Origin: Tolypothrix carrinoi HA7290-LM1
GTDB lineage: Bacteria; Cyanobacteriota; Cyanobacteriia; Cyanobacteriales; Nostocaceae
Direction: 5' to 3'
DNA length: 25,972 bases
Assembly: GCA_019358935.1 (NCBI GenBank)
Contig: JAHHIK010000118.1
Span: 1 to 25,972, forward strand
Below are positions 3,100 to 22,323 of the stretch, in pieces (within the stretch, counting starts at the first letter, position 1; the number at the start of each line of letters is the position of its first letter). The position numbers were made by a program, and so were the translations under genes. Below the pieces are notes generated by a model. The model was not told where the DNA came from and made no database searches. It was given only the letters and a program-made list of their open reading frames with translations.

Positions 3100-3172
3100 A
3101 AGTAGAACCGAAACAATGCAAACTTGCTCGGAAAGATCGACCCTTGCGGTCGTGTTTCGCGCTCCCTAAACT
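3100..3172 (+). promoter_or_regulatory. Conserved promoter module, copy 1 (upstream of ThDP enzyme)
   Basis: AAGTAGAACCGAAACAATGCAAACTTGCTCGGAAAGATCGACCC, then TTGCGG (3144-3149), N17, TAAACT (3167-3172); 56/73 ungapped identity to 9923-9995. Confidence 0.75.
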
Positions 3173-3267
3173 GATCATCAAAGACTTAAGAAAAAGCCAC
3201 TAGCATTTTCAGTTAAGAATCTAGTGCCCCTAAGGAAATTTAACCAATTGGACTTTGAAACAACTTC

Positions 3268-5022
3268 ATGAGTGCCGCAACAAAACAGATTACGTTTAAG
3301 GAAGCGGAAGTTATAGCTAATAGAAATGGTCGCTTTGCCATCATTGAACAACTTCTCGCAGATGGTATACGCTACATGTTTGGCAACCCCGGTACAGTCG
3401 AAGAGGGGTTCCTGGACGCGTTGAGCGACTATTACCCAGAATTTAAATATATCTTCGCATTGCAAGAGACGATAGCGGTGGCAGCAGCAGACGGTTACGC
3501 CCGCGTCACCAAGAAACCAACAGTAGTGCAACTCCATAGCGGAGTTGGTCTCGGTAACGGGATTGGGATGATGTACCAGGCAATGCGCGGTCATGCACCA
3601 CTGGTAATACTGGCTGGTGAAGCTGGTATTAAATACGATGCTATGGATGCCCAAATGGCTGCCGACCTTGTGAGCATGGCCAAGCCTGTGACAAAATGGG
3701 CAACCCGGGTCGTTCATCCCTCTTCTCTCTTGCGTGTGCTGCGCCGAGCCATCAAGATAGCTGCCACGCCCCCTATGGGTCCTGTGTTCGTCAGTTTACC
3801 AATGGATGTGCTGGACGCTCCTAATTACGAAGAGGTAGTTCCGACTTCTTTTCCGGTGACACGGGTTGCCCCCGAACCCGACCAGCTTGCAAAGGCGGCA
3901 GCTATGCTAGCCGTTGCATCGGAGCCACTGCTAATTGTGGGTGACGGTGTAGCTGTTTCCGATGCGCAGGCTGAATTGACCCGGGTGGCCGAACTCACTG
4001 GTGCACAGGTCTGGGGAGCAGACTCATCTGAACCGAACATGAACGCCACGCATCCTCTGTTCGGAGGGCTGCTGGGTCACATGTTTGGAGATGATAGCCA
4101 CCGCACTACATCGCAGGCGGACGTGATCTTGATTGTTAGAACTTACGTGTTACCCGAGGTATTCCCTGCCCTGTCCGGCGTTTTTGCTTCGGGATCAAAA
4201 GTGATTCACATAGACCTAAATACCTACGAGATAGCAAAGAACTTCCCGGTAAATCTCGGACTGCTTGGCGATCCGAAAACCACGCTCGCCAAGCTGACCA
4301 TTGCGATCGAGACAACCATGACGGTTGAAAACAAGGAGGCGGCAAACGAGAGGGCTGTCTTGATAGCAGAGGCCAAGAAGCAGAGATTGGCTGCTCTGTT
4401 TGAGGCCGACAAGGCTGTTCACGATTCAGTACCTCTGCATATGTCACGTTTCGCCGAGGAGCTAGCTGCCCAGTTGCCACAAGATGCGATTATCTTCGAT
4501 GAAGCACTTACCAATTCTCCCGAACTGTGTCGGTACATACCACCTACGACGCTGGGACAATATTTCCAGACGCGAGGCGGCTCGTTAGGCGTCGGCATTC
4601 CTGGGGCGATTGGAATCAAACTGGCTCATCCGGATAAAACTGTGATTGGGTTGACAGGCGATGGCGGCAGTATGTACACTATCCAGGCACTCTGGACGGC
4701 TGCACACCACAATATCGATGCGAAATTCGTCATCTGTAACAATCAGGGCTATCAAATACTGAAGCTCAATATTCTGCATTATTGGGGCGAACATCAGATA
4801 CCGGAGCACGACTATCCATCTTCTTTTAATATATGCGACCCGGATATACGTTTCGATGAGTTAGCACGTGCCATGGGAGTTCAGGCTGTTCGGGTTGAGA
4901 AGCCAGACCAGATTGGTCCAGCTATCCAGAAAGCTTTGGATCACGACGGTCCCTTCCTGATTGATTTAGTGCTTACGAACGAAATTTCGGGCACAAAGAT
5001 TGGCGTTAAATGTGGTCAATAG
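3268..5022 (+). CDS. Thiamine diphosphate-dependent enzyme, benzoylformate decarboxylase (MdlC)-like
   Basis: MFGNPGTVE, catalytic Glu in LQETIAVAAADGYAR, QLHSGVGLGN, RGGSLGVGIPGAIG, ThDP motif GDGGSMY...CNNQGY. Confidence 0.9.
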   Translation: MSAATKQITFKEAEVIANRNGRFAIIEQLLADGIRYMFGNPGTVEEGFLDALSDYYPEFKYIFALQETIAVAAADGYARVTKKPTVVQLHSGVGLGNGIGMMYQAMRGHAPLVILAGEAGIKYDAMDAQMAADLVSMAKPVTKWATRVVHPSSLLRVLRRAIKIAATPPMGPVFVSLPMDVLDAPNYEEVVPTSFPVTRVAPEPDQLAKAAAMLAVASEPLLIVGDGVAVSDAQAELTRVAELTGAQVWGADSSEPNMNATHPLFGGLLGHMFGDDSHRTTSQADVILIVRTYVLPEVFPALSGVFASGSKVIHIDLNTYEIAKNFPVNLGLLGDPKTTLAKLTIAIETTMTVENKEAANERAVLIAEAKKQRLAALFEADKAVHDSVPLHMSRFAEELAAQLPQDAIIFDEALTNSPELCRYIPPTTLGQYFQTRGGSLGVGIPGAIGIKLAHPDKTVIGLTGDGGSMYTIQALWTAAHHNIDAKFVICNNQGYQILKLNILHYWGEHQIPEHDYPSSFNICDPDIRFDELARAMGVQAVRVEKPDQIGPAIQKALDHDGPFLIDLVLTNEISGTKIGVKCGQ

Positions 5023-5229
5023 TTAACCGAGGTTTGTGCTGATTCAAGGCGTTGCATAGTTGTGGGATGATGCTGTCTCTAAATTCAGTTTGGAATTTTC
5101 AAAAACAAGAGGATATAAATTTAGCAATCACCCCTATCATCCCTGGATTATACAGTGCCTACATGACTAAAGTAGCACCTCTAAATGAACCAAAATTGAA
5201 GGAATTTACAGCAGCTTGGAGCACTTACT

Positions 5230-5931
5230 ATGATTCATCAACTCATATTTGCCCATCCCAAACTTGGAATGAGTGAAAAGGATTTTCAGGACTACTGGAA
5301 AAATGTTCATGCCATTAAGTACGCTAGCAAAATTCCTCAAATCAAGCGTTACATGATTGATTCGAGGATTCCCTTTGGAACCGAGCCAGAAGATCCATTG
5401 TGGAGTGGCGTTGCTGAGATCTGGTTAGAGAATGAGGAAGAACAACTTGCCTCCCTTCAAACTAAAGAGTTTTTAGAGGGGGCACGTTTGGATGAACCAA
5501 CCTGGGCAGCATTTTGGCGCACCGTAGTGCTGGATACAACTGCTCACACCCTGCTGGAAGGACTTCCCCTCCAAAAAAACTCCACAATGGTGAAACTTTT
5601 TATTCTGGCTAAGCGTAAACCAGGAATGCCTTTGGAGGATTTTCGTCAGAAGATGTTGGAAATTCATGCACCCAACGTGCTGAAACTTCCTGGTCTGCGG
5701 CGCTATCTCCAGTGTCATGTCCGGGATGGTTTCTATGCAGTCGGGGAAGCGCTTCTCGATTGTGTTTCTCAGCTTTGGTTTGATGACATCCAGGCGCTGG
5801 AAAAAGCTTATAAGTCTCCAGAATATGAAAATGGAGTCAAGCCGGACTTTGCCAATCTTTTCGAACCCAAATACATCCATACTATGGTAACTGATGAAAC
5901 CTGGATTATCGGACCAGAATTTCGCCTGTGA
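5230..5931 (+). CDS. EthD-domain protein with two tandem EthD (dimeric alpha/beta barrel) domains
   Basis: Two homologous halves: KLGMSEKDFQDYWKNVHA...GVAEIW and RKPGMPLEDFRQKMLEIHA...DCVSQLWFD. Confidence 0.85.
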   Translation: MIHQLIFAHPKLGMSEKDFQDYWKNVHAIKYASKIPQIKRYMIDSRIPFGTEPEDPLWSGVAEIWLENEEEQLASLQTKEFLEGARLDEPTWAAFWRTVVLDTTAHTLLEGLPLQKNSTMVKLFILAKRKPGMPLEDFRQKMLEIHAPNVLKLPGLRRYLQCHVRDGFYAVGEALLDCVSQLWFDDIQALEKAYKSPEYENGVKPDFANLFEPKYIHTMVTDETWIIGPEFRL

Positions 5932-6166
5932 AAAATACTTTTCAACAATCATGAGTGAACGATGATTCTGCTGAAGAGGTGGGGAAAGGTCTAAGAGAAT
6001 TCCTTTTACCCTATACAACCTGTTTTTTTCCTAACTTCTACAAGAAGCATTAGGAACATAGTTCGCAACAAAAAAATAAAATTTTTCTTCCCCATTCCCC
6101 ATGTTCATGTAAAAAGCTCAAGCTAGTGCGTGATGATACGATTATCAAACTTTAGGAGGCAATTTT

Positions 6167-7654
6167 ATGGATGAACAGAGCGTAAAAGAAAGAGAGACTT
6201 ATGAGGTTGCAAAACGTTGGTTTAATGCACTAGCACAAGGCGATGTTGAGACAGCCCTTAATTGCCTGGCTAATGATGTGGAGTGGTTTAACTACACCAT
6301 AATTCCTGGGTTTAATGACATAATGCCTTGGATTGGAACATATCATGGTGTCGAACAAGTAGTTGAAACATTTAAAATTTTTACCGGGCTGGTCGAAGTT
6401 AAGTTTGAGGAACTGGTTAAATTGGCTGTTCAGGGAGAAGAAGCAGCAGGAGTTATACATGAACGCTCCCTGGTTAAAGCTACAGGTCTGGAATTTGAAA
6501 TTGAGTTCGTCCAGTGGCTTACTATCCGCAACGGAAAGATTGTAAGGTGGAAATCCTACACTGATCCATCCTCCATCGTTAGGGCACTGCGAGGAGATTT
6601 ACGCAAGCGCTTGGTCGAAGCCGTTGAAAATGATGATCTTGAGATAACCAGATACCTTCTCCGACATGGTGCAGATCCTAACTCCCGCAATCCTGAAAGT
6701 GGGCTAACGGTTCTCATGATAGCTGCTGGTAAAGCTAATGCAGAGATAGTGAAAACTTTGTTAGATGCTGGTGCGGATGTATTTGCTGTAGACAGTATTG
6801 CAGGTGCATCAGCTCTACATAAGGCTTGCCAGGCAGGTAGTATCGAAGTTGCTCGACTGCTTGTCGAAGCAGGAGCTTTCATTGACTGGGCTGTACCAGC
6901 AACTGGACATACGCCTTTGATAGAAGCTTTGTGGTTTAAGTCTCCCGATATCGTGGAGTATTTGCTGCAAAAGGGTGCGGGTTTGAATATTAACACTCAT
7001 TATGGCTTCACCTTGTTGGAGCATTTTCAGTATGCTCTGAATGTTAACGTCATTGGAAAAGAAAAGTTACTTCAAGCAGATAAAATGCTGAAGGAACGTC
7101 ATAAGTCAGATGAGGAAAAAATCCAGAGCCAAAAGTTGATGGCTGTTGTAACTAGTAATGACATCGCAACGGTAAAACAACTGATTCAATCAGGCGTTGA
7201 CGTCGATGAAAGATATCCAATCCTCAATGGCTTTAATGACTACCACACTCCCTTGTTAGTAGCTGCACGGGACGGGCATACGGAAATTGTCGTAGAACTT
7301 CTGAAAGCTGGGGCGGATGTAAATGCAACAGAGCCAACTTTCGGAGCAGTCCCATTGCACAAGGCTGTATACAACGGTCATGCAGACATTACCACAATAC
7401 TAGTTGAACAGCCTGGTATTGATATCAATTTTCAGGGAGCAACAAACGGCTACACACCCCTTCACGATGCGATTTGGCATGGATTTGCTGACTGCACCCA
7501 AATTTTGATTGAAGCTGGGGCTAGGCTTGACCTGAAGGGACATGATGGTAAAACCCCATTGAATATAGCTATAGAAGTCTTTGGTTTAAAACATGAGGTT
7601 GTCCAACTGATTCAGTCAAAACTGTCAAAGTTGGAGTTTGCTAAGGCTGCTTAG
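6167..7654 (+). CDS. SnoaL/NTF2-like domain fused to ankyrin repeats
   Basis: N-terminal ~135 aa SnoaL pattern (WFNALAQGDVETALNCLANDVEW...LTIRNGKIVRWKSYTD), then ankyrin repeats (GHTPL, YHTPLLVAARDGH, GYTPLHDA, GKTPL); RBS AGGAGG. Confidence 0.9.
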   Translation: MDEQSVKERETYEVAKRWFNALAQGDVETALNCLANDVEWFNYTIIPGFNDIMPWIGTYHGVEQVVETFKIFTGLVEVKFEELVKLAVQGEEAAGVIHERSLVKATGLEFEIEFVQWLTIRNGKIVRWKSYTDPSSIVRALRGDLRKRLVEAVENDDLEITRYLLRHGADPNSRNPESGLTVLMIAAGKANAEIVKTLLDAGADVFAVDSIAGASALHKACQAGSIEVARLLVEAGAFIDWAVPATGHTPLIEALWFKSPDIVEYLLQKGAGLNINTHYGFTLLEHFQYALNVNVIGKEKLLQADKMLKERHKSDEEKIQSQKLMAVVTSNDIATVKQLIQSGVDVDERYPILNGFNDYHTPLLVAARDGHTEIVVELLKAGADVNATEPTFGAVPLHKAVYNGHADITTILVEQPGIDINFQGATNGYTPLHDAIWHGFADCTQILIEAGARLDLKGHDGKTPLNIAIEVFGLKHEVVQLIQSKLSKLEFAKAA

Positions 7655-7780
7655 ACATCGCGTTTGCTGCGAGACTTGATCCACCCTAAGTTGTGATTCA
7701 AAGGTGTAGCCTACCTGTGTAGGTGAGGGATATGGGAAGAGGGACACATTTAATCAGATTCTAAAAGGAGATGTAGCATT

Positions 7781-8089
7781 ATGCTGTTTTACGTTCAAAT
7801 GCGCTGGAACTACGAAGGAAGAATAACGTTAGATCAACTGTGGGAAATTGAGGAAAAGGAAATTGTACGCGCAAAGGAAACTGTAGATTCAGGCGAAGTA
7901 AAGGCTTTGTATAAGGTTGCTGCACAGAAGCGCGTTATTGCCATTGTGGAAGTGGAGTCAGCTGATGAATTAGACCGAAATGCCTTAGGTCGTCTACCAA
8001 TGCGGGAGTACCTAGAGTTCGAGACGATTTGGCCATTGCGAGAGTATGAGAGCTTTGCTGAAGATGTAAAAGCTCGCTACAAGGTTTAA
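7781..8089 (+). CDS. Muconolactone delta-isomerase (CatC-like) family protein
   Basis: 102 aa with MLFYVQM start, E..RA.E....G....LYKV, VESADEL, LPMREYLE...PL; RBS AGGAG. Confidence 0.75.
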   Translation: MLFYVQMRWNYEGRITLDQLWEIEEKEIVRAKETVDSGEVKALYKVAAQKRVIAIVEVESADELDRNALGRLPMREYLEFETIWPLREYESFAEDVKARYKV

Positions 8090-8180
8090 TCCAAAGTTAC
8101 CCCACAGTTTGAACCAGGCTAAGCCTAAAACCCTTTTACTGTAGCGATTTTAGAACATCGGTTCAGTAATCAATAAGCTA

Positions 8181-9423
8181 GTAGTGTGGCAAGTCAACAA
8201 TGCTTGGTGAGACAAGTGGATATAAACGTCCCATTTTCTTCCGTGCATCCGTAGTTTTAAAGCGCCAATTTACACTTGCACGCCCGAGAATTGCGATCGC
8301 TCTGCCAAGAAGCAATTTTAGAGGATAATTTTTGAACGTCAGCAATTCGTCTTTCTAAACATTGACGGGATAAAACGGATAACTCAATCTCAACTTGGTT
8401 GAGCCAACTACCATGGAGAGGGAGTGTAGTGGAACTCGCGCTTTTTGGACAATCCGACGTGCATATCGACGGTGGAAATACTTCGTATAATGCAGCTGGA
8501 TTATGTGTGTTGAGGTTATCAACTATCCATAGAATCGACGAGGCAACTGGGCAATGAATGTCTACTAAATTCTTCAAAAGTAAAGCAAAATCTTTTTTCG
8601 TTCTTTGTTGTGTAACCGAGTGGGTGTCGCCAACATGAGGAGGTTCAAAAATGGCAAATAAATTGACACTTCCCGAAGCGTTTATACTCGCGCGTCATAA
8701 CGCTCTGGTTCGGGTGGTAATGGTTCTCTAACATCCTCTAATAAAGGATATGGGCGTTCATCGAAACAAATTACTGGATGTTTTGGGTCATATGGAACGC
8801 TCGTATAAATCTAATAAATCTTCCATCCGTAAAACATACTCGGCATCTACCGTATCGTATGCACCATTGTTCCTTTAACCAAGGTTAAACGAGCGTTTTT
8901 TTTAAATAGGAGCGAACAGTTTCTTTAGAAACCGAATCTACGATGTTTAAACTCACTATGCGCTCTGCTAATAGTTGCATCGAAAGAGCGATTTCTTCCT
9001 TCTGGTGCTTTAGAACAAGCTGTCGCTTTTCAGTTATGCTTATTGTTGACCATCTAATTTCCGTTGTTTTGGTGGTGATGGGCGGTCTTGTACAGCGCGC
9101 TTCAATTCCTCCCTCTACGTATCTGGCACGGGTACGCTTAAGGATTGAAACGTGTACTCGTAAGATTTCTGCGTTAGCGAAGCTCCTCCGTCAGGAGGCT
9201 CGCTCTATCAGTTTCTCCCTCACTCGCCATCAAAAGTATATGGGCGCGGGTAATGCTTCTTGCTTTAAAGATTGCCTGTTTTGAGAGCGCGATCGCAGTT
9301 GATTAACCTCCGATTCACTTAAACTTACTGTATATTTTTTACCCATGATGCCACCCTAAATCCGTTAAGATAAGCATACCAAAAAACGGCATTAACTCAG
9401 CTTTCGTTGACTTGCCAGACTAC
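8181..9423 (-). mobile_element. IS630-family element with frameshifted transposase
   Basis: TIRs GTAGTGTGGCAAGTCAAC (8181-8198) and 9406-9423 match at 17/18; TA duplication at 8179-8180 and 9424-9425 in CTAG context; minus-strand fragments MGKKYTVSLSESE (ATG ~9346), DNLNTH and HGSWLNQVEIELSVLSRQCL. Confidence 0.92.
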
Positions 9424-9429
9424 TAGGGT

Positions 9430-9548
9430 TAAGCTGTTCCACATTTTACTTGCACATTTAATCGTGTGGACTGTTAACAGTTAAAGCCAACAATCAACCT
9501 TTAACGACCCTAATAAGTAATTGTGCAATTTAAATGTGTTTTAGCTTA
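9430..9548. repeat. ~120-bp MITE-like short inverted-repeat element, copy A
   Basis: Ends TAAGCTGTTCCACATTTTACTTGCACA and TGTGCAATTTAAATGTGTTTTAGCTTA; related copy at 24220-24339. Confidence 0.6.
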
Positions 9549-9655
9549 ATACAGCAGTACAGGCAGCCACTGCTCACTTCAAAAACACGTTAAAGAACGC
9601 TGCATCTTTCTAGAACTTAAATCTTGCACCTCGTTGCCCACAAGTTCCAAGCCAA

Positions 9656-9922: not shown

Positions 9923-9995
9923 AAGTAGAATCGAAAAATTGCAAACTTGTTTCAAAATATCGACCCTTTTAGCCGTATTTCACGCCCGATAAACT
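9923..9995 (+). promoter_or_regulatory. Conserved promoter module, copy 2 (upstream of SDR operon)
   Basis: AAGTAGAATCGAAAAATTGCAAACTTGTTTCAAAATATCGACCC, then TTTTAG, N17, TAAACT (9990-9995). Confidence 0.75.
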
Positions 9996-10238
9996 TAACA
10001 TATCGGCTTAATAACTTGGGGTAGCAGAGAAAAAATAAAAAGACTCAGGGGTACACACAGCGTCATAGAATGTGACACATGACGCAAAAAGCATCTGCTG
10101 ATAAATAGCTATCTGCACCACTGCAAAGGATTGACCCCAAAGAGATTGCACACGAGTCCTTGCGTCAAACATCTGCCATAATTAGCATGATTTCCCTACC
10201 TTTTTTAAAGTGACTTGTATTAAGTAAGGATAACCTAG

Positions 10239-11195
10239 ATGCCAAAGGACTCTGAAAACAAAATCCCCAATAGAGCCAATAGCGCATCTAAGAAGCAGAC
10301 GCTTGGACTCTCTCGGCGTCGGATAATGCTTGGCGGCGCGGGATTAGCTGGATTAGCCACAGCAGCTGGGGTTGGATACCAGGTTAATGCCAACACCCAG
10401 AAATCAGTTGCTCCCCAACCAAGACCTGCTAATCCAAATGGAAAATTTGTAGGCAAGGTCGTTCTCATCACCGGCGCAACATCGGGGATTGGAGAAACCA
10501 CCGCCCGCATGTTTGCTCAAGAAGGCGCGATCGTGCATTTTTGTGGTCGGCGAGAAGCACTTGGAAACAAAATCGCTCAGGAAATCAATGCTCAAGGCGG
10601 ACGTGCGAGCTATCAAAGAGCAGATGTTCGCAACGAGCAAGATATTCAGTCTTTTGTTGGTACCTGTGTTCAAAAATACGGTCGCGTCGATATCGCTTTT
10701 AATAATGCTGGCGTTGAAAGTTCTCCGAAAACGATCATAGAACGTTCCTTAGATGAGTGGATGAACGTGATGACGACGAACGCAACCGGGGTCTTTTTGT
10801 CGATGAAACATGAACTGCCCCAGATGCTCCGTCAAGGTGGTGGAGTCATTATCAATAACGCTTCTGTTTCCGGTCATGTCGGCTTTGCCACAATCGCGCC
10901 CTACAGTGCGAGTAAACATGCGATCGTGTCGTTGACAAAGGTGGCAGCGCTAGAGTACGCCGATAAAAATATTCGGGTAAATGCGATCGCGCCAGGAGCC
11001 GTTGATACGCCGATGTTACGACGGGCAATGGCGGCTTGGAAAACTTCTGCTGAGCAAATTGCTAACGATTATCCAATCAAGCGAATTGTTGCTGCAGACG
11101 AAATTGCAAAAGCTGTGCTCTGGCTGAGTTCTGCTGAATCAACTGCAATTATTGGCACGGATATTGATGTAACAGGGGGGTATCTTGCAAAGTAG
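10239..11195 (+). CDS. Classical short-chain dehydrogenase/reductase with N-terminal twin-arginine (Tat)-like signal
   Basis: TGATSGIG, NNAG, YSASK, APG motifs; ~65-aa N-extension containing SRRRIML followed by an Ala/Gly/Leu h-region. Confidence 0.9.
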   Translation: MPKDSENKIPNRANSASKKQTLGLSRRRIMLGGAGLAGLATAAGVGYQVNANTQKSVAPQPRPANPNGKFVGKVVLITGATSGIGETTARMFAQEGAIVHFCGRREALGNKIAQEINAQGGRASYQRADVRNEQDIQSFVGTCVQKYGRVDIAFNNAGVESSPKTIIERSLDEWMNVMTTNATGVFLSMKHELPQMLRQGGGVIINNASVSGHVGFATIAPYSASKHAIVSLTKVAALEYADKNIRVNAIAPGAVDTPMLRRAMAAWKTSAEQIANDYPIKRIVAADEIAKAVLWLSSAESTAIIGTDIDVTGGYLAK

Positions 11196-11214
11196 CTTCA
11201 CGTCTCCAAACAGG

Positions 11215-11745
11215 ATGTCACCTTACTGTGCTGTTTTTCGAGATTGGCATCTTGCGCTGATGCTCGTTTGGGCTGTTATCGGTGGATTTACTTTGTCATC
11301 CTGTAGCACACCGCCATCTGCTTCTCGTACCGGGAGTCCGATGATTTCTGATTCTTCATCGTCTCCTGCAACTGTTCAATTACAATCCACTACTAAAATG
11401 CCAAATTCATCAAACCCAACTGCCACCAATATTTCAGCGCCCATTCGTTGCTACGTCAATGCGGTTAACGCTAAGAATCTTAATGCCTTGGTTGCGTGTT
11501 TTGCTTCCGATGCAGTCGTCATTGACGTTAACCGTAAAATCACTGGTGTAGATGCCATCCGTACTTGGGCAAACAACGAGGTCATCGGCGGGAGTCTTCG
11601 AGTTATCGAGAGTACACCAACCCCTAACGGTGTCAGGCTGCTCGTACACTGGGCTCCGGGGGGATCTAACGGCTGGAGGGCGTATTACACCTTTGACTAT
11701 CAGAACGGACAGATTACTCAGGCAGATTTACAGTACGCCAACTGA
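11215..11745 (+). CDS. SnoaL-like domain lipoprotein (start uncertain: 11185, 11215 or later)
   Basis: Hydrophobic stretch ending in lipobox-like LSSC, Ser/Thr/Pro linker, then YVNAVNAKNLNALVACFASDAVVID...GVDAIRTW...GQITQADLQY. Confidence 0.75.
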   Translation: MSPYCAVFRDWHLALMLVWAVIGGFTLSSCSTPPSASRTGSPMISDSSSSPATVQLQSTTKMPNSSNPTATNISAPIRCYVNAVNAKNLNALVACFASDAVVIDVNRKITGVDAIRTWANNEVIGGSLRVIESTPTPNGVRLLVHWAPGGSNGWRAYYTFDYQNGQITQADLQYAN

Positions 11746-11793
11746 AACGGAATACCATGAACTGATTTCTGGCTTGATAATTCACAGGAAACC

Positions 11794-12837
11794 ATGTTGC
11801 TTATGCAGTACACAACTTTTGGACATACAGGCTTGGTCGTATCGCGTCTCGCTTTTGGAGCAATGACCTTCGGTACCGGTGAATTGGTACCAGGCGTTAC
11901 CAACAACATTGACCAGACTAAGGCAGATCAGATGGTTGGTCGCGCCCTTGATACCGGGATTAACTTGTTTGATACGGCTGATGCCTACACAGGAGGTCAG
12001 TCCGAAATTATGCTAGGCAAAGCGCTTTCTTCACACCGTAATGAGGTAATTATTGCAACAAAAGTCGGCTTTCGCAGCGGGAAAGCGCTCACCGATACAG
12101 GTCTTTCCTATCGGCACATCATTGCCTCAGCGGAAGCTAGCCTGAAGCGCTTGGGAACCGATTATATTGACCTGTATCAAATTCACATTCCTGACCCTCT
12201 TACACCCTTGGATGAAACGGTACGTGCTTTGGATGATGTGGTTCGCCGTGGACTCGTGCGTTATATCGGATTTTCCAACTTCCCAGCCTGGAAAGCAGCG
12301 CGAATGCTGGGGATTCAACAGTGTCATGGCTATGCCCGTTTTGCTGTAGCGCAGATGTATTACTCGTTGCTGGGGCGCGATATCGAGTATGAAATCGTTC
12401 CCTTTGTGGAAGAAACGGGGATTGGGGTGCTGGCATGGAGTCCGCTGGCTGGTGGTTTCTTGAGTGGAAAATATAATCGGGAGAATCCAACACCAGAGGG
12501 CGGGCGTCTCAACACGTTTAAAATTCCGCCTATTGATGTTGAGAAAGGCTACGATGTTATAGATTTGCTAAAGGAAATTGCTCAAAACCACTCTGCCTCA
12601 CCTGCTCAAGTGCCTCTAGCGTGGATGTTGACTAAACCCTTCATTTCGTCGATTATTATTGGTGCGAATAAAATGTCCCACTTGGAAGATAATCTAGGCG
12701 CGATTGAACTGAATCTGTCCAGGCAGGAAGTGGAACAACTCGATGAACTGACAGCGCCCCTACCTATCTATCCCGGCTGGATGCAAGCACTCGGACAGGA
12801 TGCCCAAGTGAAACAAGCGCTATCACAAGGCTTTTAG
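11794..12837 (+). CDS. Aldo/keto reductase (start may be 11803)
   Basis: FGHTGLVVSRLAFG, FDTADAY, IATK, LYQIH, WSPLAGG. Confidence 0.93.
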   Translation: MLLMQYTTFGHTGLVVSRLAFGAMTFGTGELVPGVTNNIDQTKADQMVGRALDTGINLFDTADAYTGGQSEIMLGKALSSHRNEVIIATKVGFRSGKALTDTGLSYRHIIASAEASLKRLGTDYIDLYQIHIPDPLTPLDETVRALDDVVRRGLVRYIGFSNFPAWKAARMLGIQQCHGYARFAVAQMYYSLLGRDIEYEIVPFVEETGIGVLAWSPLAGGFLSGKYNRENPTPEGGRLNTFKIPPIDVEKGYDVIDLLKEIAQNHSASPAQVPLAWMLTKPFISSIIIGANKMSHLEDNLGAIELNLSRQEVEQLDELTAPLPIYPGWMQALGQDAQVKQALSQGF

Positions 12838-13050: not shown

Positions 13051-13261
13051 GTAAGTTTTACTGACCCAGTGGTTAATCTTAAAGAGAGGTTCCTGAAATG
13101 ACGCATGAAAGCCAAATAGACTTGCATAATGGGGCTTTAAAATCAATTTTTGCTAATAAAATAATTTACTTGTTTTTGTCCTCTATTTTGGGGTTTGACC
13201 CATTAGATTAGTATAATTTTGGATTACTCACTATCAGATAAAGAGTCAAAAAACAGTAAAT

Positions 13262-13332
13262 ACTTATAATCGTGAAAATGCAAAAAATATTCAAAAATCG
13301 TCCCTTGTAGCTGTATTTTGTGCCCATAAAAT
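13262..13332 (+). promoter_or_regulatory. Conserved promoter module, copy 3 (upstream of MFS)
   Basis: AATCGTGAAAATGCAAAAAATATTCAAAAATCGTCCC, then TTGTAG (13305-13310), N16, TAAAAT (13327-13332). Confidence 0.65.
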
Positions 13333-13675
13333 TGACATTTTTTTGATGAATCAAACGTTGGTATAAGCGTTATGCAGGGGCATTGTGTCTGACTATATGA
13401 GTGTTTTGCCTAATGTCCTCGTGTTCTATTAAGTCTCAGTTCGTCATAGATAGCAAGGGTTTTAAAATCGCACTGATTCTCATACCATTTCAATTTTTAG
13501 GTGCTACACATCCAGTCTCTACTTCCCTTTCAAATTAAGAATATGTAGTGTCCTAAAGGCGAATTGACATTGAGAGGTTTTATTGAGAGGTTTTAATGAC
13601 GAAAAAAATGGCTTGGGGGAGAGAGTAAGAATTTTACTCATTCAGTAGCATTCAAAAACTAGTGAGGGTAAGACT

Positions 13676-15253
13676 TTGGAAAACACAAAAAACAACTCAA
13701 TCGATTGGTCACAATGCAAGCAAGTTACTCTGATTGGTGCTTGCATAACTGGAATTATGCTAACGTTGGACGTTACTAGCGTTGGGGTGGCATTAGACAG
13801 CATTAGTGAGGAACTGAATACGAGCTTTGCCCAATTGCAGTGGGTACTGAACGCCTACAATTTGACCTTTGGGGCGTTTTTGCTTGCTGCCGGGTCAATA
13901 GCAGATTTGTGGGGTCGCCGTCGCCTCTTCACCATCGGCGTTGCTCTTTTCACAGCGGCTTCCCTTGTGTGTGGATTGTCTCAAAATCCAATGATGCTTA
14001 ATATTGCGCGATCTACACAGGGCATATGTGCAGCATTTGTTCTACCGTCAGGATCTGCCTTGATTGCCAGTACATTCCTTGACAGTTCCGAACGGGCAAA
14101 AGCTTTTGGTCTGTTTGGGACTTCTTTTGGAATTGGTCTTGCTTTCGGACCAGTAGTAGGTGGTTTTTTGACCAGCGCTGTAAGCTGGCGGTCGATTTTT
14201 TTCATTAATGTGCCTATCGGTTTAGCCGTTTTAGCACTGGCTGTCCCGAAAATGTGTGAATCCAAAAACCCAGACGCAACTCGCGTTGACATACTTGGTG
14301 TTGCCAGCTTTAGCATATCCCTGTTCCTGTTGATTTACGCTTTGATTAATGGTCCTGAGGTGGGGTGGAATAGCCCCCAGACTCTGGGCACACTGATAGG
14401 TGCTGTTGTCGGAGTTACACTTTTTATTACTTTGGAGCGTGGACAACGTTACCCCATGTTTGATCTAGAGCTATTTAGCAACCCGACATTCATCGCGGCT
14501 CAGATTCTCCCAGTTGTACTCGCGTTCGGTTTTCTCACTCCGCTCATTTATCTTCCACTTTACTTTCAGGGTCTAAAGGACTACTCCCCAATTCAAGCAG
14601 GATTAGCGATACTCCCCTTGACCATTCCCATGGCAGCAGTTCCCGCTTTGGTGGGTCGCTTGGGAACCCGTTTTTCTGTACGCGGACTAGTGAGTGTTGG
14701 TCTAGTCTTAAACGCTATAGGTTCTTTATGGGTGAGTGTAGGTATTGCAGGGACAGAACAAATAACACTACTAGGTGCAATGCTAGTTATCAGCATTGGT
14801 TCTGGGATAGTAAATGGGCAAGCGGATAACCTTGCGGTAAGTGTGGTTTCCCCAGAGCGCAGTGGGATGGCATCAGGAATTTTCAATACAATGCGCCTGT
14901 CGGGCGATGCTATCACAATCGCTGCGGCTGGAGCAATTCTGATTGGCTTTACTCAGAAACGTCTATCCGATTTGCTTTGGGGAACATCTGTTGAACTACA
15001 CCGTTCTATAGGGGAGACTGCAAACCAGCTGGCGCGTGGTGACATTAGTGATGCATCAACTGCTGTCTCTGTGGGTCAAGAGATGTTTATGGAAGCTGCC
15101 AGAATGAGTTATTTAGGCGCATTGAGTAACTTGTTTGTGATTATTGCCTGTGTTTCTTTCATCGGTGCAGTATTGATGTTAACTCTAATACGGTCGCAAG
15201 ATATGTTTTCTCCCTCTGCCTCTTCCTCTCAACGCAAACTTCAAGAGAAGTAG
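13676..15253 (+). CDS. MFS drug/metabolite efflux transporter, DHA2 (EmrB/QacA) type
   Basis: LD.TSVGVAL, WVLNAY, motif A GSIADLWGRRR, motif C GPVVGG, WRSIFFINVPIG; many hydrophobic helices; TTG start with GAGGG upstream. Confidence 0.92.
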   Translation: MENTKNNSIDWSQCKQVTLIGACITGIMLTLDVTSVGVALDSISEELNTSFAQLQWVLNAYNLTFGAFLLAAGSIADLWGRRRLFTIGVALFTAASLVCGLSQNPMMLNIARSTQGICAAFVLPSGSALIASTFLDSSERAKAFGLFGTSFGIGLAFGPVVGGFLTSAVSWRSIFFINVPIGLAVLALAVPKMCESKNPDATRVDILGVASFSISLFLLIYALINGPEVGWNSPQTLGTLIGAVVGVTLFITLERGQRYPMFDLELFSNPTFIAAQILPVVLAFGFLTPLIYLPLYFQGLKDYSPIQAGLAILPLTIPMAAVPALVGRLGTRFSVRGLVSVGLVLNAIGSLWVSVGIAGTEQITLLGAMLVISIGSGIVNGQADNLAVSVVSPERSGMASGIFNTMRLSGDAITIAAAGAILIGFTQKRLSDLLWGTSVELHRSIGETANQLARGDISDASTAVSVGQEMFMEAARMSYLGALSNLFVIIACVSFIGAVLMLTLIRSQDMFSPSASSSQRKLQEK

Positions 15254-15366
15254 ACATCTCCGAAAAATGTTAATACCTTTCTATGACTGGCTTTCAACGG
15301 GCGATCGCCAATTGCAAATATCAGCCACTCTCAACGCAAAAATAAGGGTTTGAGACAGTTTATGTT

Positions 15367-15711
15367 GGACATATTGTGAATATTTCTTCTGTGGCTGGTC
15401 GCGTATCTGTGCCAAATTATCGTGTGTAGAATGCTACAAACATTATGAGAAGTGGGTTCAGTGAAGCTTTGCGGAAAGAAGTTTATAAAGACAACATTCG
15501 TGTGACAGTGATTGAACCGGGTGGGGTTGCAACGGAAATAGCTGACCACGTTACTAACTTAGAGTCTAAGCAGTGGGTAGAAGGGGTTTTCCAATCAATG
15601 ACAGTCCTCAAAAGTGAGGACATAGCTGCTGCGACTATTTATGCCGTGACTCAGCCGCCTCAGGTCAACGTGAATGAAATCCTGAACCGTCCCACCGAGC
15701 AGGAACTGTAG
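15367..15711 (+). pseudogene. C-terminal remnant of an SDR (YdfG-like)
   Basis: GHIVNISSVAGR; the Tyr position of YxxxK is TAG (15427-15429); frameshift into FSEALRKE...IRVTVIEPGGVATE...VNVNEI..RPTEQ; Rossmann N-terminus absent. Confidence 0.85.
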
Positions 15712-15827
15712 CTTTTCGTTTGCTTCTTGTTACGTTCAATGCTGTAGTGGGTAGGGTGGGTACTGCTTGCCTAAGACCTACGTATGCATTAATATGCTCA
15801 GATCGAGAAAATCCATTTTGTCGAGCT

Positions 15828-15861
15828 AAGGGTTTTTCTTTCGGAGCAAGTTTGGATTCTT
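15828..15861 (-). promoter_or_regulatory. Conserved module, copy 4: upstream block only, inverted
   Basis: Minus strand AAGAATCCAAACTTGCTCCGAAAGAAAAACCCTT is 28/34 identical to 3112-3145; no matching -10 follows. Confidence 0.6.
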
Positions 15862-15900
15862 TAGCAAAAATGTTGAACGTTCTGCTTTTTGTGCAACCCT

Positions 15901-16905
15901 ATGAAACGGAAATTATTTAACTCCATCCTGACCCTACCTGCTTTTATTGTGCTAGGTTTTGCCACTCCAGCGGTGGGAGCCCACCTCTACGTTGCCGGAT
16001 TTAGCTCTGACAATATTCAGCAGTACGATGCTACGACGGGAGAACTTCTTGGTACCCTCGACTCTGGTAACGAGCTGCTAGATGAGCCGGAAAATTTAGT
16101 CTTTGGACCAAACGGCAACCTCTACGTCAGCAGCAGAGGCATCGACCGAGTTCTAGAGTACGACGTTAACACAGGAACCTTGGTTGGTATCTTTGCCTCA
16201 GGCGGTGGACTGGATGGAGCTGATGGCTTAACCTTTGGTCCAGACGGCAACCTCTACGTCAGCAGCCAATTTACCGACCAAGTGCTAAAGTACGATGGGA
16301 TTACAGGAGACTTCCTTGGCATCTTCGCCTCTGGGGGTGGATTGGATGTAACTGCTGGTTTAGCATTTGGTTCAGATAACAACCTTTACGTTGCCAGCAA
16401 TGGCACCAACCAAATACTGCGCTACGACGGCACAACAGGAGCATTTCTGGGCTCCTTTGCTTCCAGCAACGAGCTGCTTGCACCTACTGGTCTAGTATTT
16501 GGTTCAGATGGCGACCTCTATGTTGCCAGCTTTTTGAATGACCAAGTTCTAAAGTACGATGGTGAGACAGGAAGCTCCCTTGGCATCTTCGCCTCTGGTG
16601 AGGAGCTCGATGGATTTGATTACTTTAACTTTGGTCCGGATGGCAACCTCTACGTTGGTAGCGTAAATAACAACCAAATCTTGGTATATGATGGTTTAAC
16701 AGGAAACCTCCTAAGGAGTTTCGCCTTAGTTGGGCTACAAGCACCCACTGGTCTAGTCTTCTCCTTCAAGACCATCCCTGAATCCTCTTCTGCATTAGGG
16801 CTATTGGGATTTAGTGTTTTATGTGCATATTGGCTGTTGCGCAAGAAAACCTTAGGAGTGCAAATTTCATCCGCGAAGCTTTATAGCAGACAGATGAAAG
16901 CGTAA
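15901..16905 (+). CDS. Secreted NHL/Vgb-like beta-propeller protein with PEP-CTERM-like sorting tail
   Basis: Signal peptide MKRKLF...PAVGA; six ~44-aa repeats (NLYV.S..TDQVLKYDG.TG.FLG.FASG..L....L.FGPDG, 132-bp period); C-terminal IPESSSALGLLGFSVLCAYWLLRKK. Confidence 0.85.
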   Translation: MKRKLFNSILTLPAFIVLGFATPAVGAHLYVAGFSSDNIQQYDATTGELLGTLDSGNELLDEPENLVFGPNGNLYVSSRGIDRVLEYDVNTGTLVGIFASGGGLDGADGLTFGPDGNLYVSSQFTDQVLKYDGITGDFLGIFASGGGLDVTAGLAFGSDNNLYVASNGTNQILRYDGTTGAFLGSFASSNELLAPTGLVFGSDGDLYVASFLNDQVLKYDGETGSSLGIFASGEELDGFDYFNFGPDGNLYVGSVNNNQILVYDGLTGNLLRSFALVGLQAPTGLVFSFKTIPESSSALGLLGFSVLCAYWLLRKKTLGVQISSAKLYSRQMKA

Positions 16906-16983
16906 ACTACTCTGCCCATGCCGTAGGCTGACGTAAAATGTCTCTACATAACACAACTTTTGCTATTTTACACCAAGCCCACC

Positions 16984-17048
16984 AAAAGAATACAAACTTG
17001 CAAAAGAAAGATTGTCCCTAGCGACCTTGCAGCTGCGCTCTTTAGAAT
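16984..17048 (+). promoter_or_regulatory. Conserved promoter module, copy 5 (upstream of GUN4-domain gene)
   Basis: AAAAGAATACAAACTTGCAAAAGAAAGATTGTCCC, then TAGCGA, N18, TAGAAT (17043-17048). Confidence 0.65.
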
Positions 17049-17063
17049 TAATCATGCATAATT

Positions 17064-17080
17064 TCAATGCGTAAGTCCTA
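17064..17080. mobile_element. Solo terminal inverted repeat of the IS701-type element at 24511-25650
   Basis: TCAATGCGTAAGTCCTA is the exact reverse complement of 24511-24527. Confidence 0.65.
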
Positions 17081-17209
17081 GTATTCCCACTCATACTGAA
17101 GCCGCCCTTGCATTGAAAAAGCCTATGGACAGTTTGTGCGTAAGGTGATGGCAACAGCAGGTATGTTTGTTTTAGGAGTAGCCATCCACTTTTCCTGATG
17201 AGGACCTCA

Positions 17210-17809
17210 ATGTCTAATGAAGTGCATAAATCTGAAGCCATCAGTAGTTCAGCCGCGATAGAAGCGCAGCTACAACAATTCAATCAGCTTTTATCAAGCC
17301 TCTCCGAGCGAGTTGCTCGGTCAGAGTAGAATCTTATACTGGTTGCAAATGTCTACAAATACAAAAAGCTGCGAGATTTGTTAGCGGCAGAGAACCTGCC
17401 AGAAGCGGATTGGGAAACCATTCAGGTAATCCTAGCGCTCACAGGACAGCCTGATGTGGAATCCATCACCCCTGATGACATGAGGCGGTTTCCCTGTGAT
17501 CAACTTCGCGTGATTGACAGCCTCTGGACAACCTATAGCAAGGGTCGCTTTGGCTTCAGTGTGCAGATTCAGATTTATCAAAGTGTGGGTGGTTCTCTCG
17601 GTACCACCATCTCTCAAGATAATTCAGTTATTGAACAATTCGGCGATCGCGTCGGCTGGCGCGTGGACGGCAAATGGCAAAAGTGTGATGACCTAGACTA
17701 CACCCAAGCTGCGCCAACAGGCTGTCATCCTTCGCGGTGGTGGAATTCCCCCTTTGGTTCTAAAATGACGAACTATTTCTTCAATCGGCTGCTCACGTGT
17801 GGTCTTTAG
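17210..17809 (+). pseudogene. GUN4-domain protein with one in-frame amber stop
   Basis: GAGGA RBS and ATG at 17210, in frame with ORF 17378; TAG at 17327-17329; GUN4 motifs Y.KLRDLLAA, EAD.ET, FPCDQLRVIDSLW..YSKGRFGFSVQ, FGDRVGWR. Confidence 0.8.
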
Positions 17810-17954
17810 GTCGGCTGTTCTGATCTTGCAATCGGGGTAACTCTAACTATCGGCAAATCGTACTTTGAACACCTTTATCAGCGCAGCACAAATTTTAGCA
17901 ACAGAGCCATCTTTGGTTCAAAAATCGTAATCCTAAGCTGAAAAAACGCCTGCT

Positions 17955-18392
17955 ATGAAGAAATCTATCTTGATGCCGAAGATTAAATTCTACTTACTCA
18001 CTATTGAAAAGTGGTATTTAGATACACCAGAGCGATCGCTGGATGAAGCGTACAAAGCGGCCTTGCTGATTAAGGCGATGGAAGAAAAACATTTCAGTGG
18101 TCAGAAAATAGCGGCTGAATCCGCCAGTTACGGAGACAGCGTTATAGCTTATTTTCAGTCAGAACTTAAAAAATACTTAAAAACTATCCGGATGAGACTG
18201 GTAGAATTTCAGGCGAGTTGTTCAGTGGTTAGTACTTATAATCAAATAATTACCACAATAGTAAAACATGCTCCCACAAATTCTCCCAAAGATTCCTTGG
18301 CTATCCAACTAAGAAATAATCCCGACTTGATTTTAGATAAATTAAGGTTCATTGATTCGTCTGTCGCCACCTACCGCAATATGAATGAATAG
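17955..18392 (+). CDS. Stand-alone N-terminal domain of proton extrusion protein PcxA (CotA/CemA), lacking the transmembrane CemA domain
   Basis: WYLDTPERSLDEAYKAALLIKAMEEKHFSGQKI, YFQSELKKYLKTIRMRL.EF and LDKLRFID match my recollection of the PcxA N-terminus; the ORF stops at 145 aa with no TM helices. Confidence 0.75.
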   Translation: MKKSILMPKIKFYLLTIEKWYLDTPERSLDEAYKAALLIKAMEEKHFSGQKIAAESASYGDSVIAYFQSELKKYLKTIRMRLVEFQASCSVVSTYNQIITTIVKHAPTNSPKDSLAIQLRNNPDLILDKLRFIDSSVATYRNMNE

Positions 18393-18482
18393 TTTTGAGT
18401 TTTGAATACTAAATGGTATTGCCCACTGATGTAGCCTACAAATAAAGTAAGTGTATTTTTCTGTCTTGGGAGGAATTGATAA

Positions 18483-19154
18483 ATGTCAATGAAAGGAATA
18501 ATTAGAGGTCTAAGTGAGTTTCATAAAAACTATTTCTGCTCACATCAGGAGTTGTTCGAGCGACTCTCTCACAGCCAACACCCTGAAGTGCTCTTCATCA
18601 CCTGTTCCGACTCCCGGATTGACCCGAATCTGCTAACTCAAACCCAGCCGGGTGAACTATTCATCATTCGTAATGTTGGTAATATCATTCCAACCTATGG
18701 AGCAATCAATAGTGGTGAAGGTGCAGCCATCGAATATGCTGTTCATACTTTGGGGGTCAAGGATATTATTATCTGTGGCCATTCCCACTGCGGAGCCATA
18801 AAGGGACTGTTGCAGTTGGGTAATCTTGCTGAAGAAATGCCTTTGGTTTACGAATGGTTAAAGCATCATGCGGAGGGTACCCGCCGCCTTGTTCAGGAGA
18901 ACTACAAGGAGTACTCTGGTAAGGAACTTTTAAACGTCACAATTGAGGAAAACATCCTGACCCAGATACAAAACCTGGAGACCTACCCAATCATTCGCTC
19001 CAAACTTCACAGTGGCCAACTCTACCTTCACGCCTGGGTTTATGAGATTGAGACTGGAAAAGTTTTCGCTTACAACGCTAGCCTTGGCAAATTTGTACCT
19101 CTTGAGGATCTGTTTCCTGTACCTAATCCTCTAGCTGCCATGCAGCCTAGATAA
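18483..19154 (+). CDS. Beta-class carbonic anhydrase (CcaA/IcfA-like, short form)
   Basis: Zn-ligand motifs ITCSDSR and GHSHCG, GELFIIRNVGNIIP, AAIEYAV; RBS GGAGG. Confidence 0.95.
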   Translation: MSMKGIIRGLSEFHKNYFCSHQELFERLSHSQHPEVLFITCSDSRIDPNLLTQTQPGELFIIRNVGNIIPTYGAINSGEGAAIEYAVHTLGVKDIIICGHSHCGAIKGLLQLGNLAEEMPLVYEWLKHHAEGTRRLVQENYKEYSGKELLNVTIEENILTQIQNLETYPIIRSKLHSGQLYLHAWVYEIETGKVFAYNASLGKFVPLEDLFPVPNPLAAMQPR

Positions 19155-19177
19155 TGGAACTATTGGAATTTTAATAG

Positions 19178-20224
19178 ATGAGCCGCTCAAATCCTACTAA
19201 TACACTGCAACGGTGCAAACAGTTTCTCAGCAAGACAAAGAATTCGTTTAAAGGAAAGTATCATCTTTACACTGGTGAACAACTGCATTGGTTTCAAGTA
19301 GTTTTACGACTTGAAAGTTCAGTTCTTTCAGTCATTCTTCCCTGCGTAATCGTTTGTGGTGTATATGGTTTTTTAGTATCCTTACTCCACTATTTTGGGG
19401 TTACTATAGCATTTCCAGAGGGGAATCGTGTTCTTACTAATGCCGTATTGAGTTTCAATGTTGGCTTGAGTTTGTTATTAGTTTTCCGGACGAATACAGC
19501 TCATGATCGATTTTGGGAAGGTCGTAAACTATGGGGAGCTTTAGTCAATACGGTTCGTAACTTGGCTCACTCCATTTACATAGTAGTTAAAGAGCAGTCA
19601 CCGAAAGATCGAGTAGAAAAAGAGGCAATACTTCGGCTAGTAGTTGCTTTTACGGTCGCGATTAAGTTACATCTAAGGTCAGAGCCTTTGGACGGGCAGT
19701 TAGCGTCATTGATGTCAGAATTCCAGTATTGCAAACTCAAAGAAACGAATCATCCCCCACTACAAATTGCCTTTTGGATTAGGGATTACTTGCAGTATCA
19801 GCATGACCAAAATTGTCTAAATATCTATCAGTTGACTGCCTTACATAAATTGCTGGATGATATGATAGATATTTTGGGTGGCTGTGAACGCATTTTGAAA
19901 ACGCCACTGCCCTTGATATATGCTATTAAACTCAGGCAACTGGTGGTAATTTATTGTCTGATATTGCCTCTTGAAATAGTCAGGAATTTAACTTGGTGGA
20001 CCGGCTTAGTAATAGCTTTTGTGAGTTTCACATTATTGAGTATTGAACAAATTGGTTCTGAAATCGAAGAGCCTTTCGGGCACGATCCAAATGACCTACC
20101 CTTGAATGCGATTTGCAACACAATGCTACGCAATGTTGAGGAATTAATCAGGCTTGCTCCTAACAACGCTCGTGACTGGCAGCTCTCAGACCTACACGTT
20201 AGAAACAACCTCGAGAAAAAATGA
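19178..20224 (+). CDS. Bacterial bestrophin-family anion channel
   Basis: LLLVFRTNTAHDRFWEGRKLWG, CERILKTPLP, EIEEPFGHDPNDLP; starts 23 bp after the CA stop. Confidence 0.93.
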   Translation: MSRSNPTNTLQRCKQFLSKTKNSFKGKYHLYTGEQLHWFQVVLRLESSVLSVILPCVIVCGVYGFLVSLLHYFGVTIAFPEGNRVLTNAVLSFNVGLSLLLVFRTNTAHDRFWEGRKLWGALVNTVRNLAHSIYIVVKEQSPKDRVEKEAILRLVVAFTVAIKLHLRSEPLDGQLASLMSEFQYCKLKETNHPPLQIAFWIRDYLQYQHDQNCLNIYQLTALHKLLDDMIDILGGCERILKTPLPLIYAIKLRQLVVIYCLILPLEIVRNLTWWTGLVIAFVSFTLLSIEQIGSEIEEPFGHDPNDLPLNAICNTMLRNVEELIRLAPNNARDWQLSDLHVRNNLEKK

Positions 20225-20269
20225 CTTGGGCGAACTGACTCTGTCCACACCCCTTTACGCCGCTTCTGG

Positions 20270-20673
20270 CAGAGAGTTTAGGCATTATTTAGGGGGATTA
20301 TTGGGAGAAAGTGAGAGAAAAAATCTATTTCAGATGGCTTCTAATGCCGTAGGGGTGACTTACCATCGTTTACACAACTTTTTAACCGAAGCACCTTGGT
20401 CTAACTCGAAGATCAATGAACGTCGCTTGCAGATAATGAACAAATGTAGTCAGACCTGAATTAGTAGAGGATTTAGTCTAATAATTGATGATTCAGGGCA
20501 AGTGAAAAAGTGGAAATTTTACTACTGGAGTAGGAAGTTACTGATGCTTTAGAAGCCTTTAGAACAGCGATATCTTTTCGATTTTTTGATTGGTTAACCA
20601 TGAGTCGTGACGTGTTTGCCGCTTATAAAGCTACTTTGGGCTTCATTTGGGCTTAATTTTTGTCTAAGTCCCG
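20270..20673 (+). mobile_element. Internally deleted IS701-family remnant
   Basis: REFRHYLGGLLGESERKN...KCSQT*ISRGFSLIIDDSG fused almost directly to the C-terminus DALEAFRTAISFRFFDWL...GFIWA* (stop at 20656); right end TTTTTGTCTAAGTCCCG. Confidence 0.85.
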
Positions 20674-20742
20674 ATAAGGCAAAAGGAAAAATGCGATCCC
20701 CCCTTATTGATCAACCTTTGTCACCCCGCACTCAGGTAGTAT

Positions 20743-22158: not shown

Positions 22159-22210
22159 TCCAATCAGGATAACGGCGCAATATGGGTTGTATAAGTCCAA
22201 AATCGCTGCC

Positions 22211-22233
22211 GAAGCCTGCAACATGCAGGCTTC
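22211..22233. terminator. Perfect 10-bp hairpin after the kinase gene
   Basis: GAAGCCTGCA-ACA-TGCAGGCTTC; no 3' U tract on the + strand. Confidence 0.4.
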
Positions 22234-22261
22234 AAAACCGAACTTTTAGAACGATTAGCAC

Positions 22262-22323
22262 AAAAAATGCAACTTTTTACCGAAAGATTGACCCTTGCAG
22301 CCATATTTTGTAGCTTTTAAACT
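22262..22323 (+). promoter_or_regulatory. Conserved promoter module, copy 6 (upstream of LtrA-family gene)
   Basis: AAAAAATGCAACTTTTTACCGAAAGATTGACCC, then TTGCAG (22295-22300), N17, TAAACT (22318-22323). Confidence 0.7.

Follow-up and report, generated by a model that had tools for sequence, protein, structure and literature searches.

A tandem-repeat promoter on a mobile island of Tolypothrix carrinoi and a small AraC protein as its likely activator

Introduction

Which protein reads a short repeat that stands before gene after gene on one contig of the cyanobacterium Tolypothrix carrinoi HA7290-LM1? The window analyzed here (25,972 nucleotides, the complete contig C118 of the 7.96-Mb, HIP1-rich genome G000) carries six copies of this repeat. 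A first-pass annotation, made from the letters of the window, had read them as a promoter module by which one activator co-induces redox enzymes, efflux, and CO2/anion handling, and had proposed motif searches across the genome and in related cyanobacteria. We find that the repeat is likely the operator-promoter through which a small AraC-family protein, encoded on the same genomic island, would jointly activate about eight transcription units. The sites keep a common geometry, face genes, are confined to the island, and co-occur with one clade of AraC proteins.

Results

The genome-wide scan used a test model of 49 sites, all from other genomes, with G000 and the closest site donors excluded. 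It recovered exactly nine copies in G000, at E values of 7.7e-15 to 2.2e-3: the six of the window, two on contig C136 (C136:2625, +; C136:16373, −), and one on contig C24 (C24:925, −). The next-best G000 match had an E value of 0.25, and the best match in the reversed genome, which served as control, one of 1.5. This confirms that the repeat is real and that nothing comparable occurs elsewhere in G000 or in the control. Copy 1 as a lone BLAST query matched only 3 of 41 genomes, so profile models were needed for the wider search. A sequence-only model then detected the motif in 21 of 151 genomes of the family at E ≤0.001; strong sites (E <1e-6) were present in 15 of the 151, mostly in clusters and with up to 10 copies. 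One weak partial match each (E 1.6e-4 to 9.2e-4) was found in G021, G059, G063, G082, and G164, which were not classed as strong. An exact-pattern scan of the genome collection returned five loci, which were not re-counted because the named records may duplicate assemblies already included.

We gathered 83 sites and analyzed 82 after removing one that was cut at a locus end. Their consensus, C.AAA.AAT.cAAACTT..tc / C.AAA.aT.aACCCTTG, is made of two direct repeats of ~21 bp, the second closed by the TTG of the −35 box; this tandem structure of the upstream half is absent from the first-pass annotation. The A-tracts have a period of 21 bp in 67 of the 82 sites, autocorrelation is highest at lag 20 (0.25) with no peak at 10–11, and the −35 to −10 spacer, as aligned, measures 17 bp in 67 sites and 18 bp in 15. 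A TAnnnT −10 is present in 74. Per column, the repeats and the −10 hold 1.1–1.2 bits of information, the spacer 0.54, and the flanks 0.20–0.23. The tie to gene starts and orientation that had been proposed holds across this larger set, with a same-strand open reading frame (ORF) behind 72 of the 82 sites; six of the other 10 face an opposite-strand ORF (three of these are the GUN4 unit, where our script chose a spurious antisense ORF), and four have no ORF within the locus. The predicted layout is that of an activator-dependent sigma-70 promoter.

A multi-copy, intergenic repeat in a region rich in insertion sequences (ISs) could also be a MITE (miniature inverted-repeat transposable element), a repetitive extragenic palindromic (REP)-like repeat, or a structured RNA, but we consider this extremely improbable. 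The consensus is a direct rather than an inverted repeat, information is confined to the repeats and the −10 with unconserved flanks, and a search of Rfam with the repeat gave no matches. Moreover, the sites are strongly oriented towards genes and restricted to three island contigs. Terminal inverted repeats, conserved ends, and genome-wide spread, by which a MITE or REP element would be recognized, were all absent, in agreement with the earlier preference for a promoter.

All six window copies were found where they had been annotated, and the ungapped identity of 56/73 between copies 1 and 2 was reproduced. Copy 1 (3109–3172, +) has repeat 1 at 3109–3129 and repeat 2 at 3130–3146, overlapping the −35 TTGCGG at 3144–3149, followed after 17 bp by the −10 TAAACT at 3167–3172 (predicted start ~3179). 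Copy 2 (9932–9995, +) joins two repeats to a weak −35 (TTTTAG, 9967) and, after 17 bp, TAAACT at 9990–9995 (predicted start ~10002). Copy 3 (13271–13332, +) is the weakest of the forward copies: repeat 1 is degenerate, and repeat 2 and the −35 TTGTAG (13305) are followed after 16 bp by a −10 read directly off the sequence, TAAAAT at 13327–13332 (predicted start ~13339). The repeats of copy 4 (16983–17048, +), which has orthologous sites in G016 and G167, lie 22 bp apart and precede a −35 TAGCGA (17019), an 18-bp spacer, and TAGAAT at 17043–17048 (predicted start ~17055). Copy 5 (22260–22323, +) combines two repeats, a −35 TTGCAG (22295), 17 bp, and TAAACT at 22318–22323 (predicted start ~22330), and its kinase-site-ltrA order recurs on the Nostoc edaphicum plasmid pNe_3. 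Across copies 1–5, the −35 is thus TTG-led and variable rather than the fixed TTGYAG that had been annotated. The correctly spaced −10 claimed for all copies stands for these five (spacers of 16–18 bp) but not for copy 6 (15801–15864, −), which has no TAnnnT at that position. This copy retains both repeats (15864–15827), its −35 and −10 have decayed, no same-strand gene lies downstream, and it is likely a relic. An SDR gene fragment (15331–15711) lies antisense to it.

Our candidate reader is a small AraC-family protein encoded at C24:9437–10051 (PF12833), with its double helix-turn-helix (HTH) intact. Pfam finds HTH families only, ~36 residues precede the binding domain, and three PDB matches are to generic AraC domains. 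Because the protein has no ligand domain, its amount probably sets the output. Its C-terminal tail (C24:9887–10048) resembles a stretch of C135 (50% over 36 amino acids) and may be akin to the N-terminus of an IS transposase. An orthologue is present in 12 of the 151 family genomes, and all 12 are among the 21 motif-positive ones, which lends comparative support to the proposed single activator, with the island AraC as its candidate. Among 401 genomes at the level of the order, five from another family carry a stand-alone orthologue (68–70%) together with a match to the island's STAND proteins (see below), and have 8–13 sites each. In G106, the AraC gene and an adjacent site occur with no STAND match. 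Both predicted recognition helices are near-invariant in the 16-member island AraC clade. The motif was not detected upstream of the island AraC operon, which gives no hint of autoregulation.

The accessible portion of PMC3900636 describes half-sites in direct repeat as a typical feature of AraC activators. On the island sites, two AraC DNA-binding domains would sit head to tail on the direct repeats, and the downstream domain, overlapping the −35, would recruit sigma-70 RNA polymerase in the manner of class II activation.

Sister systems appear to make a stronger case for an AraC reader than genome co-occurrence does. In six of nine fetched loci without an island STAND gene (G379, G452, G036, G501, G441, and G315), variant sites adjoin a cupin-, PAS-, or REC-AraC paralogue. 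G000 itself has a lasso-peptide-like locus (C62:18300–27040) with a PAS-AraC gene and five variant sites; the same variant recurs at the REC-AraC locus of G501, and a model of this class does not match the island copies (best E 1.5). The four motif classes have in common the 5′ box of each repeat, and it is the 3′ box that sets them apart. Leave-one-genome-out classing returned 117 of 118 sites to their own class, and four sites of G036 and G315 were left unclassed. Across the AraC paralogues, the first recognition helix is near-constant and the second varies. This parallel between helices and boxes fits the AraC rule that the two recognition helices read the two boxes.

The layout also recurs at scyA. 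With a matrix free of scyA sequence, 30 of 30 loci (the best 30 of 49 ScyA matches that exceeded the family cut-off, from 121 genomes) showed it upstream of scyA and on the sense strand, with scores above those of all 60 controls (reverse strand and shuffle). The island sites alone as matrix detected it in 20 of the 30, and several of the loci hold two copies. The G000 site is on C31 (locus coordinates 13260–13340), and the REC-AraC gene beside the G000 scy kinase is 59% identical to the island AraC in the binding domain. As far as the consulted text of PMC9127174 goes, the scytonemin operon, or scyA, is controlled by an AraC-type regulator. We predict that the layout upstream of scyA is the operator of that regulator, ScyR. 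In most loci, the predicted −10 ends 190–230 bp upstream of the conserved ATG. The published start in N. punctiforme is reportedly ~164 bp upstream of scyA, and a real mismatch would weaken the ScyR prediction.

Several points weigh against an AraC reader. Four of the 15 strong-site genomes (G121, G128, G145, and G161) lack the orthologue, and their best AraC matches are only 45–54% identical. Three of these (G128, G145, and G161) are assemblies of 1010–1300 contigs, but G121 is 99% complete. AraC and STAND genes are carried together by the island; co-occurrence by itself therefore does not tell one from the other, and related genomes do not count as independent cases. A protein without a dimerization domain has no obvious need for tandem sites. 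Among the nine paralogue loci, three (G483, G507, and G044) yielded no convincing site, the sister models were refined in rounds with sites from the neighbourhood of the same AraC genes, and the 30 scyA promoters are orthologues rather than independent events. Finally, part of the circuit may be dead in G000: the second STAND gene is split, the ScyA-related gene is truncated, and several targets are defective. Both the AraC and the first STAND gene are intact here.

The repeat could also have another reader: an alternative sigma factor, an OmpR-type response regulator, or an AraC paralogue encoded in trans, for example ScyR. Several kinases are encoded on the island, the AraC paralogues have the first recognition helix and the 5′ box in common, and G121 has sites with no orthologue. 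However, the sites lack the 10–11 bp periodicity of OmpR spacing, the −35 and −10 boxes are sigma-70-like, and the island response regulator has a thioredoxin-reductase-like domain as its fusion partner and showed no DNA-binding domain. In addition, ScyA exceeded the cut-off in 49 of 121 genomes, whereas the island sites are restricted to a small subset. We consider such a reader improbable.

The proteins that travel with the AraC protein are potential readers as well. These XssQ-like STAND proteins (HTH-NB-ARC-WD40) might bind the repeat directly, perhaps with one paralogue per half-site. Among the fetched island loci, no cluster is shared more widely than their genes (13 groups), and their N-terminus occurs in 15 of the 151 family genomes, 12 of them motif-positive. 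One site adjoins them, G161 has STAND and sites with no AraC orthologue, and XssQ illustrates that such proteins activate cyanobacterial promoters (PMC8205485, in the part available to us). By contrast, G042, G046, and G144 have a STAND match, no AraC orthologue, and no site better than E 0.001; in G046 and G144, the STAND N-termini are 79–81% identical, with no site nearby. Sites without STAND occur in G106 and at the sister AraC loci. G038, first taken as STAND-less, was removed from that list when a STAND gene was found nearby. The same layout stands beside AraC genes at scyA and at the C62 locus, and the STAND genes are tracked by a different conserved box, AAGTT/AACTT, akin to the AAGTTnnAC of XssQ. 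Direct reading of the repeat by STAND proteins is therefore unlikely.

This separate AACTT/AAGTT block lies upstream of the AraC-containing operon in 14 of 14 islands examined, with 0–4 mismatches to a 20-base core and often with a weaker divergent copy. In G000, the boxes stand between the AraC operon and the ScyA-related gene (C24:8169–8237, +; C24:7907–7861, −). Two STAND loci that lack AraC have the block too, that of G144 and, weakly, that of G046. It was found by alignment and not by the search for the perfect XssQ-type palindrome upstream of the AraC operon, which gave 45 matches vs 22 expected (14 regions, two mismatches). According to the accessible text of PMC8205485, XssQ is a cyanobacterial STAND activator that binds AAGTTnnAC. 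Since the box upstream of the AraC operon tracks the STAND genes, a likely circuit leads from a signal to STAND, then to AraC, and then to the regulon. The STAND protein would act at the AAGTT/AACTT box and induce AraC, which would then fire the regulon promoters; this cascade is the least supported step of our proposal.

The history of copy 1 bears on how the sites arose. In G016 and G167, a CMD-family gene has a promoter-leader with 87% identity to the promoter and leader of copy 1 (3091–3248, +), and that of the DJ-1 operon in G100 and G142 matches positions 3111–3248 at 84% identity. The leader meets the thiamine diphosphate (ThDP) enzyme gene at ~12 nt of microhomology (3236–3248). We read copy 1 and its leader as a case of promoter reuse, spliced before the ThDP gene; promoter reuse is a described process (PMC3575422, as far as seen). 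Such identities raise the question of whether the copies as a whole are promoter-leader DNA duplicated by IS-driven rearrangement, alike by descent and with no dedicated activator. Inverted duplicate pairs in G016 and G167 would fit this, as would the resemblance of copies 1 and 2 at low-information columns (0.60 vs a mean of 0.38). Still, most G000 pairs are near background at these columns (0.15–0.60), and the boxes are fixed across families. Descent accounts for the origin of some copies, but not for box-limited conservation or AraC-specific variants. As a substitute for an activator it is improbable, yet promoter duplication is compatible with AraC control, as the route by which the sites spread.

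Five target units are predicted on the forward strand of the window. Unit 1 (3268–8089) comprises the ThDP enzyme, EthD, SnoaL-ankyrin, and a muconolactone-isomerase-like gene. Unit 2 (10239–12837) encodes an SDR, a SnoaL-like protein, and an aldo-keto reductase, and unit 3 (13676–15253) an MFS transporter. In unit 4 (17210–20224), the GUN4-like gene has a premature stop and the PcxA-like gene a ~900-bp deletion, and the carbonic anhydrase and bestrophin genes are intact; a site directly precedes carbonic anhydrase and bestrophin in G349 and G417. Unit 5 (22512–23717) is LtrA. Outside the window, the C136:2625 copy stands before a ThDP gene remnant. Across islands, the recurrent first genes behind sites are glgX, a DJ-1/PfpI-ThDP operon, CMD/EthD, an ankyrin gene, SDRs, aquaporin-like genes, and efflux genes. 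The redox, efflux, and CO2 theme of the first-pass annotation is therefore present, but the set is wider and includes glycogen-debranching and DJ-1/PfpI operons. Judged by their families, the targets suggest carbon remobilization and a response to reactive-carbonyl and redox stress. Also in the window, a beta-propeller repeat protein (15889–16905) has weak ScyF similarity, 132-bp internal repeats, and what is presumably a PEP-CTERM-like tail.

HIP1 density on C118, C136, and C24 is 0.41–0.53 per kb vs a genome median of 1.01. The island's second HTH-NB-ARC-WD40 gene begins at the right end of the window (first 39 codons, 25740–25856, +), is cut there by a multi-copy end, and has its last ~79 codons at the left end of C24 (C24:93–329). 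Since this one gene is split between the two contigs, C118 and C24 are probably fragments of one island that IS copies have split; gene content shared in relatives ties C136 to it. C24 encodes a relaxase, a TrbI-like gene, and a Tn7-like transposase, by which the island is likely plasmid-borne. Close AraC relatives with sites lie on two named Nostoc plasmids (four sites in 81 kb). Common to the islands are glgX, an AGE-epimerase/STAS gene, the receiver-thioredoxin-reductase fusion, kinases, two STAND genes, and the small AraC gene. In several islands, a ScyA-related ThDP enzyme and a KAS III-like gene adjoin the regulators (L025:4045–7087; C24:7089–7598), and a haem-oxygenase-like gene does so in others; the product of the first two could be a signal molecule.

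Mobile-element traces are frequent in the window. Related IS-end-like sequences occur at both contig ends (92–130 and 25845–25883) and in the leader behind copy 2 (10190–10224), and IS remnants at 8178–8710, 20154–20459, and 24586–25611. Further short intergenic repeats, inverted and direct and unrelated to the motif, lie at 9406–9461, 8178–8198, and 24219–24340.

Discussion

A broader picture, which we offer tentatively, is that of a plasmid-borne two-tier switch. The STAND proteins, which resemble immune receptors, would sense a small molecule, perhaps a product of the ScyA-related ThDP enzyme and KAS III encoded next to them, and would induce the sensor-less AraC protein, which would fire a portable promoter cassette spliced before an ever-changing set of stress genes. 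The same operator layout, retuned by a few bases for each paralogue, would then be a readable code for a cyanobacterial AraC subfamily that includes the ScyR site.

These results provide a concrete operator and target list for an unstudied cyanobacterial AraC subfamily. They also predict, at base level, where the scytonemin regulator binds, which would be useful for scytonemin engineering, and look-alike signals beside related activators would likewise give those regulators, the scytonemin activator included, testable binding sites. A likely orthogonal activator-promoter pair for cyanobacterial synthetic biology comes with them, as does a candidate cascade from STAND to AraC.

Among known systems, the closest in layout are the AraC/XylS class II activators, such as Escherichia coli AraC at araI1-araI2 and XylS at Pm, which bind tandem half-sites. 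The island promoters likewise have two direct-repeat half-sites spaced by ~21 bp, or about two turns of the helix; the proximal half-site overlaps a −35 that is followed by a sigma-70 −10 at 17–18 bp, and there is a linked, co-occurring AraC-family gene. They differ in that their sequence is distinct, that about nine promoters lie on a mobile island, that the protein has no ligand or dimerization domain, and that its binding is predicted. Pseudomonas aeruginosa SphR is a further AraC/XylS-family case with tandem half-sites (PMC3900636, accessible portion).

MarA, SoxS, and RamA act at single ~20-bp boxes and are under SoxR, MarR, or RamR control. Like them, the island protein would be an AraC domain that lacks a sensor and heads a regulon of redox and efflux genes, its control probably lying in its own expression. 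In contrast to a single degenerate box, the island sites are tandem, with ~1.1–1.2 bits per column in each repeat, and a STAND protein would be the regulator acting above AraC. In G038, the same AraC clade includes a cupin-bearing relative. The STAND activator XssQ of Synechocystis PCC 6803 resembles the island STAND proteins in its N-terminal HTH and in the AAGTT boxes upstream of the AraC operon (PMC8205485, in part). However, AAGTTnnAC is not the consensus of the 21-bp repeat motif, and the likeness of the proteins is stated here at the level of domain type.

The scytonemin response regulator ScyR (Npun_F1278) is a further close system: the REC-AraC gene of the G000 scy locus is 59% identical in the binding domain, and scyA promoters share the two-repeat/−35/−10 layout. 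ScyR differs in having a receiver domain and a kinase, and the 3′ bases of each repeat differ. Within the portions consulted, PMC13707963 mentions no ScyR binding site, motif, or electrophoretic mobility shift assay, PMC9127174 no ScyR site, and PMC12188702 gives no scyA start site. Our search of the literature on cyanobacterial AraC sites, scytonemin promoters, and ScyR binding found no description of the motif, the regulon, or a ScyR site; subscription papers and supplements were outside its scope, so a published ScyR site is possible. The promoter architecture is ordinary textbook AraC. What it defines is an apparently undescribed island regulon, to which belong an activator that lacks a sensor and, probably, a STAND tier, and the predicted ScyR site is open to testing.

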